Below, one piece after another: positions 12,073 to 30,561 of a stretch of 30,932 bases of DNA; positions within the stretch are counted from its first letter, which is position 1, and each line of letters starts with the position of its first letter. Position numbers and translations under genes: made by a program. A model generated the notes under the pieces. That model was not told where the DNA came from. It made no database searches and saw only the letters and a program-made list of their open reading frames with translations. The stretch is from IMG/VR virus record IMGVR_UViG_2529293142_000025, positions 1 to 30,932 of that record; one strand, written 5' to 3'. Source of the DNA: a virus (lineage: Duplodnaviria > Heunggongvirae > Uroviricota > Caudoviricetes).

Positions 12073-12454
12073 TGCCGCCTCCTCCACCCCGCAGGCGGGA
12101 GAACAGGCCGGACACCAGTGATGCGATATCCTGCTGGTGGATGAACGACAGAATCTTCACCGACACCACCGCCACCAGCACCGCACACAGTGCATCCGCA
12201 GATGTACCGTCATAACCTGTTTTTGATGCAATCCAGGCTGACAGTACACGCGCCCCCAGTACACCAACAATGAACGACACCAGAAAATGTGCCGCCACAC
12301 GCCAGGCTGAAATCTTCTGCGGCATCGTTGCCACAAACAACGCCCCGGCGAACGCACCAAACACAATCCCGAAATCCGTTCCGGTAAACAGCCCGAATAC
12401 CGTCGCCCCGCCGAGCGCCGCAGCCGTGCCGGAACCGGATAAGGGTTCAGACAT
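12062..12454 (-). CDS. putative holin
   Basis: 130 aa Gly/Ala-rich membrane protein starting MSEPLSGSGTAAALGG; AGGAG SD 8 nt upstream of ATG 12452-12454; the track ORF upstream extension is not supported. Confidence 0.5.
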   Translation of the reverse strand: MSEPLSGSGTAAALGGATVFGLFTGTDFGIVFGAFAGALFVATMPQKISAWRVAAHFLVSFIVGVLGARVLSAWIASKTGYDGTSADALCAVLVAVVSVKILSFIHQQDIASLVSGLFSRLRGGGGGNVK

Positions 12455-13800: not shown

Positions 13801-13875
<75 letters not shown>

Positions 13876-13878
13876 ATA

Positions 13879-13954
<76 letters not shown>

Positions 13955-14202
13955 ATTGGCTCTTCAGGGGAGCGATATCACCGCTCAAAGAAGAGTTCCC
14001 CCTCAGAGCCGTTTTCGATGATACGATTTAATACTCCAATCGCAACAACACCTTGCGTCAAGTTATGTAAATTTATTTATATGTTTTTATTTTATGTGAA
14101 TAATTCACTTTCACTTAAAATATAAATGACAATATATAAACAAATTTATTTTGAAGGCGATTATTAAATGTCGTTTCTGATATCACGCCCCAGAAACAAC
14201 AA

Positions 14203-14222
14203 AACCCGCTCAATGGCGGGTT
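14203..14222 (-). terminator. terminator after roi-like gene
   Basis: minus-strand hairpin AACCCGCCATTGAGCGGGTT followed by T-rich tract. Confidence 0.4.
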
Positions 14223-14317
14223 CTGGTAAAGTTCATGCGCTTGATTCGCCTCGCGATACAGCTTTGCGAAGCGTACCGGAATTGAAGCAGTTTATGGCTA
14301 AAATTGCAAGAACTTTT

Positions 14318-14929
14318 TTAAAGCTGCATCAGCCTTTCCACCAGTTTATCTCTGCGAACAACAAACCAACCATTGGCTCTCGCCAGTTCCAGCCATGACT
14401 CAAGGGAAATAACAATATCATCATCCCGCAACTGAATTGTGGAAACAGTGACACCGCCTCGCTGATAACAGAGAACTCGCGTGTCGTAACTTTTCTGGCA
14501 TGAAGCTGGCGCTGACAGATCCTTTTGTCTGAAATAGCAGTCTTCCAGTTTTTCGAACACATCCCACGCCTGATCGGTTTCGAGCATTTTGGCGTGACGG
14601 GCTGCGCCTCGTTCTGTCCAGAGGATAAGGGAGCGGGCTTTCGGGGAAATTTGTAACCCTCTTAAAGATGGTTGCAAATTTTGTGAGTTACTTAAAGTAA
14701 CCCGCAAATTTTGTGAGTAGTTTAAAGCTACCCGCAATTCTTTAAGGTCATTACCAACAACTTTGAAAAAGTGTTTCCCTTCAACGAAGCGTGCTTTGTT
14801 CTCATGATGATTCTGGCGAATACGCACCGGCTCAGTGCCGTAAAGCTGCGCCAAAAGTTCGGTGGTAATAACAGGAATCTGGTTATGGGTGATAGGGGAG
14901 AGAGTTTCAACAGAAATTTGAGTTGTCAT
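14318..14929 (-). CDS. antirepressor-like DNA-binding protein (KilA-N/ORF6N-type, Roi-like)
   Basis: 203 aa; N-terminal ...LLAQLYGTEPVRIRQNHHENKARFVEGKHFFKVVGNDLKEL and ...SLILWTERGAARHAKMLETDQAWDVFEKLE resemble the two halves of the KilA-N/ORF6N fold; first gene after the late promoter. Confidence 0.5.
   Translation of the reverse strand: MTTQISVETLSPITHNQIPVITTELLAQLYGTEPVRIRQNHHENKARFVEGKHFFKVVGNDLKELRVALNYSQNLRVTLSNSQNLQPSLRGLQISPKARSLILWTERGAARHAKMLETDQAWDVFEKLEDCYFRQKDLSAPASCQKSYDTRVLCYQRGGVTVSTIQLRDDDIVISLESWLELARANGWFVVRRDKLVERLMQL
14671..14733. repeat. about 30 bp tandem direct repeat (2.5 copies) inside the roi-like gene
   Basis: GGTTGCAAATTTTGTGAGTTACTTAAAGTAACC / CGCAAATTTTGTGAGTAGTTTAAAGCTACCC / GCAATTCTTTAAGG on plus strand. 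Confidence 0.7.
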
Positions 14930-15090
14930 AATGACGCCCTCTGGTGGTTTCTTAATAACTCACCACCGACGACGCCAATCGTCTGGTGGTGAACTGTGCA
15001 GGGTTGGCGTAACCGGGAAACCGACCGGCGCGGATCTCTCCGCCCCCACACAGCCCACCATAATTCAGATGTGCGCGTGCATACGACAAT

Positions 15091-15112
15091 AAAAAACACG
15101 CTCGCGGCGTGT
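15091..15112 (-). terminator. tR-prime-like terminator downstream of late promoter
   Basis: minus-strand hairpin ACACGCCGCGAGCGTGT followed by TTTTTTATT. Confidence 0.5.
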
Positions 15113-15173
15113 ATCTGTCGCGGTCTCTATCCAGGACGCCAATCCCGACGCCAGATTTTGCTGGCGCGTGAGG

Positions 15174-15203
15174 AATATAGCCCCGGATAACAGATTGAGT
15201 CAA
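15174..15203 (-). promoter_or_regulatory. late promoter (pR-prime-like), Q-dependent antitermination region
   Basis: minus strand TTGACT, 18 nt spacer, TATATT; the -35 overlaps the Q stop codon, as in lambda. Confidence 0.5.
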
Positions 15204-15754
15204 CAGACGGTTTTTAGATCCCCGGAAGAGAATGCATCACGCATCGGCAGATAGAGCATAAACTCTGCCATTTTCAACCACGCATCTATGCGATTACGGC
15301 ACGTGGCGTAACACCACTCAGGGTGTGAACCATTCAGCAATTCAGCCATTTTTCGCTTAGTCATCCCCCTCCCTTCATATCGTTGCCGGAGGATACAAAT
15401 CAATCCTGGGTGTTCTGCCAGCACTTCACTAATCACCCGATCAATGCATAACGCCTCTGAATCGGTACAATGTACCAGCCAGCTCTTTTGCTTGCCGTTA
15501 ATCATATCCCGCAAAAAAGCCTCAAGTTCAGGTTTGTCCAGACCTGCTTTTTTCATCCTCCGGAGCGCCTCGTTAATTGCCGTTTTTGTCAGCTTTTTAG
15601 AGGCCAGCAACTGGTTGAACATATTTCCCGTCTTACCGCCGCCAATATACGACCAGCGCCCCCACATGCGCAGTTTTCCCTGAATCCAGACACTTTCCAA
15701 CGTGGTGAGACGAAGGTGTTCCCCGCTTTTGCCTGTATTTGTTGGGTAAATCAT
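15200..15754 (-). CDS. late-gene antiterminator Q-like protein
   Basis: 184 aa from ATG 15752-15754; position at end of nin region directly before the late promoter; the N-terminal extension in the track ORF overlaps the upstream gene. Confidence 0.55.
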   Translation of the reverse strand: MIYPTNTGKSGEHLRLTTLESVWIQGKLRMWGRWSYIGGGKTGNMFNQLLASKKLTKTAINEALRRMKKAGLDKPELEAFLRDMINGKQKSWLVHCTDSEALCIDRVISEVLAEHPGLICILRQRYEGRGMTKRKMAELLNGSHPEWCYATCRNRIDAWLKMAEFMLYLPMRDAFSSGDLKTVC

Positions 15755-17198: not shown

Positions 17199-17354
17199 TT
17201 ACTCCTCAGGTTCGTAAGCTGTGAAGACAACGACCTCCGTCTGGCCGGTTCGGATTCGTACCTCGCAGAGGTCTTTCCTCGTTACCAGTGCCGTCACAAT
17301 GACGGTTAAACAGATGACGATCAGGGCGATTAACATCGCCTTTTGCTGCTTCAT
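17199..17354 (-). CDS. hok: Hok/Gef family type I toxin
   Basis: 51 aa MKQQKAMLIALIVICLTVIVTALVTRKDLCEVRIRTGQTEVVVFTAYEPEE; an in-frame upstream mok-like extension starts at 17411; structured leader with inverted repeats at 17451-17490. Confidence 0.8.
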   Translation of the reverse strand: MKQQKAMLIALIVICLTVIVTALVTRKDLCEVRIRTGQTEVVVFTAYEPEE

Positions 17355-17542
17355 AGCCTGCTTCTCCTTGACCTTTCGGTCCGTAAGAGGCAATCTATAT
17401 GTGTCTAGCATATAGGGGCCTCACTTCGATTTATAGTCGGGTGGGGCTTTTATCTATCTGCCGTTGGTGTTCATGCCTGAGGCAGATAGCCTCAAGCACC
17501 CGCAGCAATTCTACTTAACTCTCCTTTTCCCGCAAACCGTTT

Positions 17543-28380: not shown

Positions 28381-28587
28381 ATGACAAAAATTATGAGATA
28401 TGACGATGTTAAACCATGTCCGTTTTGTGGTTGTCCATCTGTTACAGTGAAAGCAATTTCAGGATATTACCGGGCAAAATGCAACGGATGCGAATCCCGA
28501 ACTGGCTATGGTGGAAGTGAAAAAGAAGCACTCGAAAGATGGAATAAACGAACTACTGGAAATAATAATGGAGGTGTTCATGTATAA
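28381..28587 (+). CDS. ralR: restriction alleviation protein RalR/Lar-like, Cys4 zinc-ribbon
   Basis: MTKIMRYDDVKPCPFCGCPSVTVKAISGYYRAKCNGCESRTGYGG...; start at internal ATG 28381. Confidence 0.6.
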   Translation: MTKIMRYDDVKPCPFCGCPSVTVKAISGYYRAKCNGCESRTGYGGSEKEALERWNKRTTGNNNGGVHV

Positions 28588-28768
28588 AATAACTGCCACT
28601 ATTGAAAAAGAAGGTGGCACTCCTACTAACTGGACAAGATATTCAAAATCTAAATTAACGAAATCAGAATGCGAAAAAATGCTCTCAGGGAAAAAAGAAG
28701 CAGGCGTGTCCAGAGAGCAGAAAGTAAAGCTGATAAATTTTAATTGCGAGAAACTTCTGTCCTCGTGA
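28580..28768 (+). CDS. ydaC: YdaC-like small protein
   Basis: 62 aa MYKITATIEKEGGTPTNWTRYSK...; GGAGGTG SD 5 nt upstream. Confidence 0.55.
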   Translation: MYKITATIEKEGGTPTNWTRYSKSKLTKSECEKMLSGKKEAGVSREQKVKLINFNCEKLLSS

Positions 28769-30245: not shown

Positions 30246-30348
30246 AAAAAAGACCGGAATACAGAAATTCGAGTAAATTTCGAGTAATTTCGGGGAGACG
30301 TTTGCAACTAATTGATTTTAAATACAATTAAAAAAAGACCGAATACGA
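30246..30348. repeat. imperfect direct repeat AAAAAAGACCG(G)AATAC (30246-30263 and 30330-30348) flanking 11 bp tandem TTCGAGTAA units; candidate att core/arm sites at the prophage junction
   Basis: the second copy is the 3-prime half of the SdsR terminator; the first lies 86 bp toward int. Confidence 0.4.
30301..30328 (+). promoter_or_regulatory. sigma-70 promoter for RyeA
   Basis: TTTGCA, 16 nt spacer, TACAAT. Confidence 0.45.
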
Positions 30349-30432
30349 TTCCTGTATTCGGTCCAGGGAAATGGCTCTTGGGAGAGAGCCGTGCGCTAAA
30401 AGTTGGCATTAATGCAGGCTTAGTTGCCTTGC
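30330..30432 (-). ncRNA. sdsR: SdsR (RyeB) small RNA
   Basis: about 103 nt on minus strand starting GCAAGGCAACUAAGCCUGCAUUAAUGCC..., ending in hairpin GACCGAAUACAGGAAUCGUAUUCGGUC plus U7; sigma-S-like -10 TCTATTCTTAA just upstream; identity from memory. Confidence 0.6.
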
Positions 30433-30561
30433 CCTTTAAGAATAGATGACGACGCCAGGTTTTCCAGTTTGCGTGCAAAATGGTCAATAAAAAGCGTGGT
30501 GGTCATCAGCTGAAATGTTAAAAACCGCCCGTTCTGGTGAAAGAACTGAGGCGGTTTTTTT
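30336..30561 (+). ncRNA. ryeA: RyeA (SraC) small RNA, antisense to SdsR
   Basis: plus-strand transcript predicted from the TTTGCA/TACAAT promoter to the terminator at 30521-30561; fully overlaps sdsR on the opposite strand. Confidence 0.45.
30521..30561. terminator. bidirectional Rho-independent terminator (RyeA on plus, yebY on minus)
   Basis: hairpin AAAACCGCC...GGCGGTTTTTTT with U-tracts on both strands. Confidence 0.55.

Follow-up and report, generated by a model that had tools for sequence, protein, structure and literature searches.

A promoter on the stop codon of a prophage Q gene as the probable head of an isrK/C4-type antirepressor cassette

The window analysed here is the whole 30,932-nucleotide (nt) stretch of the IMG/VR record IMGVR_UViG_2529293142_000025, and our subject is the interval within it that separates the antiterminator gene Q from the next gene downstream, the antirepressor gene ant; all of the features of this region are on the minus strand. 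Q (15200-15754) encodes an AntQ-like protein of 184 amino acids that matches Pfam DUF1133 (2e-107), and it also matches PF06530 (Phage_antitermQ) weakly and is weakly similar to the Q21 structures 6jnx and 6p18 (E = 3e-4). The ant gene (14318-14929) encodes a 203-residue protein with an ORF6N domain (Pfam ORF6N, 2.5e-19). The interval between them holds a promoter, a short terminated leader, a C4-like antisense RNA and a hairpin ahead of ant, and it had been read in an earlier note on this DNA as a late promoter with the pR'/qut/tR' logic of lambda.

The promoter, of the isrK (P_isrK) type, is recovered by a consensus scan at 15174-15203, where 10 of 12 positions are matched by a -35 hexamer TTGACT (15203-15198) and, after an 18-nt spacer, a -10 hexamer TATATT (15179-15174). 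The Q stop codon, TGA at 15202-15200, falls within the -35 hexamer. A terminator-like hairpin found by scanning at 15112-15096 is followed by TTTTTTATT, and if transcription starts at 15167 the leader is 77 nt long, with its terminator ~55-75 nt past the expected start. The hexamers right after Q, their overlap with the stop codon and the downstream terminator are thus as the earlier note described them, and the imperfect palindrome that it placed at 14961-14991 is a 14-pair hairpin with one bulge (14960-14992; fold z = -3.7). Taken alone, the hexamer match is at chance level, with four promoter-like sites found in 3.5 kb against 4.7 expected, and promoter prediction, which had been proposed as a check, accordingly recovers the site without any excess of such sites. 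The unit as a whole is well above chance, with Rfam E values between 1e-14 and 1e-16 for the leader. Scanning viral contigs with a sequence pattern returned at least 120 loci, with 84 distinct regulatory regions among the matches listed, to which the counts of viral-contig copies given below likewise refer. Across these 84 copies, whose upstream flanks are unrelated, the -35 TTGAC is at least 90% conserved, GGGCTATATT is shared, and the terminator is constant in position and varies in sequence in a compensatory way. A sigma-70-type promoter on the Q stop codon that drives a short leader ended by an intrinsic terminator is therefore supported; in Gifsy-1 the homologous promoter transcribes isrK-orf45-anrP, and the homologous unit has been found by experiment to yield a 77-nt RNA and a read-through mRNA (PMC4825925).

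The leader is a member of the IsrK family. The 77 nt at 15091-15167 score 75.5 bits against Rfam RF01394 (gathering score 50) over the full length of the model, 1-77 of 77. The a1 hairpin (15167-15148) has the loop GCAAAAUC, the b1 hairpin (15147-15132) carries the word UUGGCGU (b1, 15142-15136), and the intrinsic terminator (15112-15096 and its U-run) closes the RNA, the 5' half of which is also covered by the c4-a1b1 motif (15180-15128; RF03163, 50.5 bits, gathering score 46.7). Downstream lies the C4-like antisense RNA (14982-15065; RF01695, 66.7 bits, gathering score 45), the equivalent of STnc1160, which folds into a 17-bp closing stem around two hairpins and a single-stranded b' segment, ACGCCAA (15010-15004), with a minimum free energy of -44.5 kcal/mol (z = -4.2). 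The palindrome described above is the third element: it presents UUGGCGU again as b2 (14978-14972), and the C4 closing stem shares part of its 3' strand with the 5' arm of this hairpin. The b1 loop region is complementary to b', and the same word recurs in the b2 loop, 43-49 nt upstream of the ant AUG and off its Shine-Dalgarno (SD) sequence (GAGGG, 14941-14937); alternative GGUGGUG/CACCACC pairings connect b2 to the SD region. Hence isrK, c4-a1b1 and C4 follow one another on one strand in the order expected of a C4 system, each at Rfam gathering level, and the surroundings are those of IsrK, with a DUF1133 Q upstream and a C4-like RNA with an upstream open reading frame (uORF) and an ORF6N Ant downstream.

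The gene that follows had been called roi-like. BLASTP against the Roi protein of VT2-Sakai gives only E = 1.7, and we rejected this identity; the product is instead 99% identical over 135 residues to the annotated Ant of VT2-Sakai, and the gene is an Ant/AnrP-type antirepressor, not Roi. Within it, a tandem imperfect direct repeat at 14655-14725, in which GCAAATTTTGTGAGT.. occurs twice, encodes the duplicated peptide ..YSQNLRV../..NSQNLQP... The uORF appears in the open reading frame list at 14960-15061, has 33 codons and occupies the position of Gifsy-1 orf45, with its AUG at +107 as in Gifsy-1 and its stop 30 nt ahead of the ant AUG. We considered and rejected the possibility that it is a conserved coding gene of the orf45 type: its length lies anywhere between 8 and more than 61 codons in the copies, its stop position varies, and a Gifsy-1-like frame of 45 codons with an overlapping stop is present in only eight of them. 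Its AUG is conserved because it lies inside the 5' strand of the C4 stem.

The three segments b1, b' and b2 co-vary among the copies. The exact b1 word, its reverse complement and the same word again are found in 79 of the 84 distinct copies, which fall into at least 10 specificity classes; in the Salmonella locus L007, for example, UUGGUCU/AGACCAA/UUGGUCU and UUUGCAC/GUGCAAA/UUUGCAC both occur. In the alignment of the 84 copies b1 and b' are 97.1% paired, as against 14-40% with the partner in slid registers; this helix has 115 double-change cells and compensatory change in six of eight pairs, and b' and b2 are 96.3% paired with 80 double-change cells; for neither helix did any of 500 shuffles reach the observed values. 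The three-way co-variation characteristic of C4-type antisense RNA systems is thus present. Moreover, the compensatory mutants G28/C162 and G31/C159 made in Gifsy-1 (PMC4825925) map exactly onto b1 and b' in window coordinates. Two cassettes may occur on a single phage contig, with one copy in the nin region and the other behind Q, as seen in L007 (249-573 and 3547-3871, with the differing b words UUUGCAC and UUGGUCU) and L043 (3918-4242 and 7180-7504, with UUGGCGU in both); the two b specificities within L007 suggest insulated parallel switches.

These results bear directly on one alternative, that hexamers and hairpin are a functionless chance resemblance. Promoter-like sites are indeed no more frequent than in shuffled sequence, and the fold energy of the IsrK-like RNA alone is unremarkable (z = -0.6), but a leader matching Rfam at E = 1e-14 or lower, conservation of the unit across hundreds of genomes and unrelated contexts, the strong b1/b'/b2 co-variation and an experimentally characterised homologue in Gifsy-1 leave this alternative with next to no probability, and we regard it as effectively refuted by co-variation and homology.

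The distribution of the cassette is that of a mobile unit. In VT2-Sakai and many other Shiga toxin (Stx) phages the promoter-IsrK-C4-ant unit is 98% identical, with homology from window position 15203, and lies directly after nin60/NinE, 2.5 kb upstream of an unrelated Q. Among 121 viral-contig copies the upstream gene is NinE in 34, a DUF1133 Q in 23, a PF06530 Q (the 933W/Q21 type) in 21, a PF06323 Q (the 82 type) in 14 and a PF03589 Q (the lambda type) in one, the remainder being other genes. Near-identical copies of the cassette match in 926 of 5,426 complete E. coli genomes, Stx phages included. Among species-representative loci encoding relatives of the window Q, isrK/C4 follows Q in only 3 of 27. 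In seven of these loci (L005, L006, L008, L011-L013 and L015) the DNA right after the Q stop codon is homologous to window positions 14319-14198, that is, to a block that in the window lies beyond ant; L006 aligns to 15800-15227 and then straight to 14319-13798, at 92% identity. Since the cassette-free relatives join Q directly to this block, a junction that is also seen in 635 complete E. coli genomes, the window carries an insertion of ~0.9 kb relative to them.

What the cassette displaces is itself built like a late promoter unit. The block at 14192-14309, which follows the Q stop codon directly in the cassette-free relatives, is a candidate Q-dependent promoter unit with a -35 TTGCAA (14309-14304), a 17-nt spacer and an extended -10 TGcTTCAAT (14289-14281), a -10-like TACGCT (14275-14270) at about +1 and an intrinsic terminator, found by scanning, with its stem at 14225-14200 and a U-run. 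The +1 element reads TAYGCT in all 25 aligned distinct copies, the stretch from +1 to +30 is strongly conserved (leader fold z = -2.7), and the terminator varies in sequence among relatives at a constant position. Downstream come two tRNA genes, tRNA-Thr(UGU) and tRNA-Gly(UCC) (13801-13954; ARAGORN, Rfam), a TerB-like gene and a holin gene, and L006 and L008 have the same tRNA pair behind the block. The -35 that the block has in L006 (TTGATT) likewise overlaps the Q stop codon, so that overlap with the stop codon is a recurring property of Q/promoter junctions. From these comparisons, the block at 14309-14192 appears likelier than the promoter at 15203-15174, ~890 nt upstream of it, to be the cognate Q-dependent late promoter. 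We found no mapped loading site for Q proteins of the AntQ/DUF1133 type in the literature searched, and the block offers a concrete candidate for one; its layout is lambda-like, with an extended -10, a TAYGCT at +1 that predicts a sigma-dependent pause, and a terminator at ~+50 to +80. An AT-rich stretch with promoter-like sites (14045-14018) precedes the two tRNA genes, and the position of these genes between candidate late promoter and lysis genes parallels that of the Stx-phage tRNAs after PR'-tR'. The leaders at 15167-15150 and 14274-14256 begin alike, with (G/A)CGC..GCAAA..CTG and GCAAA at ~+7/+8, a similarity that may reflect coincidence or shared ancestry.

Displacement of the block that belongs behind Q is not confined to one type of Q. 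Behind DUF1133 Q genes, 15 of 17 cassettes have the window-type block ~810 nt on. The class behind 933W-type Q genes comprises 19 copies, 15 of them with enough downstream sequence, and in 15 of these 15 the start of the Stx post-Q block is found at 774-857 nt; the displaced block includes TTTACGATCGTAA from the end of the Stx Q gene. The promoter within the Stx block has been mapped: differential RNA sequencing placed the Stx2 phage PR' start at 1,266,203 and tR' 258 nt downstream (PMC7547250). After a constant offset of 142 nt between record versions, the published start lies 7 nt past TTTACG-16-TATCAT, and we find a terminator 257-258 nt downstream of the converted start, in agreement with tR'. 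The Stx2a PR' transcript also has a strong terminator-like hairpin and U-run ~25-50 nt past the mapped start and far short of tR' at +258 (L150 769-790, in Sakai Sp5, corresponding to L001 ~12074-12098), and this early hairpin is kept in the displaced PR' blocks.

It is against this background that the late-promoter claim has to be weighed. If the promoter at 15203-15174 were the true Q-dependent late promoter, Q would load there and read through ant and the tRNA genes to the lysis genes, and the IsrK-like RNA would be a terminated leader like lambda 6S or StxS. Like a pR' promoter, the isrK-type promoter lies right behind Q, with its -35 hexamer over the stop codon and an intrinsic terminator downstream; every downstream gene through the holin is co-oriented, a -10-like CAAAAT lies at +8 to +13, half of the sampled copies are directly behind a Q gene, and Sy et al. 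2020 have phrased the Gifsy-1 case in this way. However, the same promoter core and leader stand behind NinE and four Pfam Q families, and one core cannot be the specific loading site for four different Q families; a pR' promoter region would be specific to its cognate Q family and co-inherited with it, and this one is not. Most relatives of the window Q have no cassette and carry the other block directly after Q, and intact post-Q blocks specific to the type of Q, the mapped Stx2 PR' among them, lie just past the cassettes. Pairing with the C4-like RNA limits how far the leader sequence can vary, and the first gene past its terminator is an antirepressor, followed by a second promoter/terminator unit, the tRNA genes and the holin gene. 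We consequently judge a late promoter at this site improbable: the promoter, its overlap with the Q stop codon and the terminated leader that the earlier note described are real, and their identity as Q-dependent pR', qut and tR' is unsupported.

A compromise would assign the -35 and the upstream half of the spacer to the Q module, complete with a Q-binding element, and have Q modify polymerases from both the cassette promoter and the cognate promoter downstream. The -35-proximal spacer classes do track the upstream gene, the register of TGA within TTGAC recurs in DUF1133, PF06323 and PF03589 contexts, and an imperfect direct repeat, CTGTTGAC / CTGTTATC, is present at 15207-15185; Q21-type proteins bind direct repeats (10.1101/651190). 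Descent by itself would nonetheless produce this linkage to the upstream gene, since recombination finds no homology to act on further upstream; copies in NinE contexts have an equally good TTGAC and spacer, no motif shared by the spacer and the conserved cognate block was seen by inspection, and retention of the cognate block argues that this block is needed. This compromise seems to us about as unlikely as a late promoter proper. Candidate Q-binding direct repeats are visible by eye in both promoters.

We consider it very probable that the stretch between Q and ant is the regulatory head of an antirepressor cassette of ~0.9 kb (~15203-14320), a homologue of the Gifsy-1 isrK locus that works on the P1 immI principle. 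The data show that it belongs to these families, that b1, b' and b2 co-vary, that the cassette is mobile and that it has inserted between Q and the sequence that usually comes next. Judged by homology to Gifsy-1 and P1, from which we take where transcription starts, how regulation runs and what Ant does, a constitutive sigma-70 promoter belonging to the cassette would start transcription at ~15167, and the majority of transcripts would end at the terminator to give the 77-nt IsrK-like RNA with its a1 and b1 loops. A minority would read through and supply the C4-like RNA together with the b2 hairpin and the mRNA of ant. In this long RNA, ant would stay untranslated through pairing of b' either with the upstream b1 or with b2, which lies shortly before the ribosome-binding region of ant, and free IsrK would act in trans as a decoy for b', shifting the long RNA to a translatable fold. 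Ant would then inactivate a prophage repressor, allowing more early transcription and more Q.

Several points weigh against this reading. For the window and the E. coli copies, start site and regulation rest on homology, and the sample of viral-contig copies is redundant. In the alignment the -35 and the adjoining half of the spacer fall into classes that travel with the upstream gene, and a binding element specific to the type of Q is possible in this stretch. The conserved a1 loop, CAAAAT at +8 to +13, could also be a sigma-dependent pause element, and Sy et al. 2020 call IsrK, in passing, the product of an antitermination-regulated promoter. Candidates for a' pair over only 5-6 bp and are ambiguous (GGUUU(C) with AAAUC and GAAACC), and no convincing a'/a1/a2 pairing could be defined from the short complementarities in the window and the copies; conservation of the a1 loop is uninformative, the loop having been included in the search pattern. 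Finally, the hexamers of the candidate late promoter downstream of ant are weak (TTCAAT is without A at position 2), and the consensus promoter scan did not pick it.

The kind of element is already known, given its membership in curated, experimentally studied families and its wide spread in E. coli, and it is the functional label that needs replacing. Doing so corrects a natural misreading, also made in passing in the literature, of a promoter on a Q stop codon as an antitermination-regulated late promoter. For the annotation of lambdoid prophages, it means that an RNA-controlled antirepressor cassette should be expected after Q and that pR' should be sought behind the cassette. The at least 10 classes of b word should decide cross-talk between the antirepressor switches of co-resident prophages, and thereby bear on prophage induction and Shiga-toxin release. 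Two points are modestly new: the repeated placement of the cassette, in several Q families, precisely at the boundary of Q and the cognate late promoter, and the candidate loading site for AntQ/DUF1133-type Q proteins. More tentatively, and with the odds against it, the mobile cassette may have landed repeatedly at the exact Q/late-promoter junction in at least three or four Pfam Q families. If so, each landing puts the cassette -35 over the Q stop codon and shifts the cognate pR' ~0.9 kb downstream, and if the placement is functional and not just tolerated, the antirepressor switch would be coupled to Q expression, possibly through transcription or translation across the Q stop codon that occludes the IsrK promoter, or through read-through from the Q region that feeds the ant mRNA.

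Elsewhere in the window, the YbcO-family gene of the nin region that precedes Q overlaps it as ATGA at 15751-15754, and because of this stop-start overlap Q is probably translationally coupled to it; the 224-residue version of Q with a GTG start in the open reading frame list is likely too long. Rfam identifies, on the minus strand, a sok antitoxin RNA of a hok/sok module (17352-17501) and RalA, the antitoxin of RalR (28586-28764), in a region that is annotated in strain CE0021a with ralR, recET and kilR, and at the window edge the SraC/RyeA-SdsR/RyeB locus (30326-30470). These features suggest a Rac-like lambdoid prophage integrated next to ryeA/ryeB.

The closest known system is that of Gifsy-1, where the order is antQ-isrK-orf45/STnc1160-anrP-isrJ (Hershko-Shalev et al. 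2016, PMC4825925). There, the isrK promoter gives rise to the 77-nt small RNA and to a read-through mRNA that is translationally silent, and IsrK acts in trans to open this mRNA, so that AnrP is made and antQ expression rises; the authors already pointed to the resemblance to P4 seqA/CI (PMC4825925). The window shares with Gifsy-1 a DUF1133-type Q, a promoter at the Q stop codon, a 77-nt IsrK, a C4-like RNA and an ORF6N antirepressor, its b1/b' corresponds to the experimentally proven helix b-I, and in both a second short terminated unit follows the antirepressor; a search for an isrJ homologue after ant gave no Rfam match at E <= 10 in 13900-14400. Differences are also found. The window uORF, at 33 codons, ends 30 nt short of ant, whereas that of Gifsy-1 has 45 codons and overlaps, and the Gifsy-1 locus is characterised by experiment whereas the E. 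coli copy is known from sequence; a stable ~77-nt Hfq-binding IsrK and a read-through mRNA are known only for Gifsy-1 (PMC4825925). In the Salmonella locus examined, L007, the layout is identical and Q is 83% identical to the window Q, but its b word is UUGGUCU in place of UUGGCGU.

The same principle is found in the immI regions of P1 and P7 (c4-icd-ant) and in CI/seqA/seqC of P4, all within Rfam clan CL00128, where an antisense RNA shares a transcript with its targets. As in P1 and P7, the cassette has predicted targets both upstream (a1/b1) and downstream (a2/b2), an antirepressor would be the controlled gene, and loop sequences set heteroimmune specificity classes. Unlike immI, the cassette resides in lambdoid prophages and not in a P1-type plasmid prophage, lacks an icd homologue and an identified a' element, and encodes an antirepressor of the ORF6N type. 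Moreover, its a1/b1 module ends at its own terminator and would therefore be released as a separate small RNA, unlike that of P1 and P7.

With the lambda 6S unit, the PR'-StxS unit of Stx phages (PMC7547250) and PR' of phage 21 (10.1101/651190), the cassette has in common a constitutive promoter next to Q and a short terminated RNA, which in the cassette as in pR' units can act as a small RNA. The -35 lies over the end of the Q gene in the cassette promoter, in Stx2 PR' and in the cognate block of L006 alike. In contrast to pR' units, however, the cassette promoter is tied to no single Q family and is followed by an antirepressor instead of late genes. The unit of the window that resembles pR' is the one at 14309-14192, with a -10-like element at +1 and a terminator at ~+50 to +80, and then the tRNA and lysis genes.

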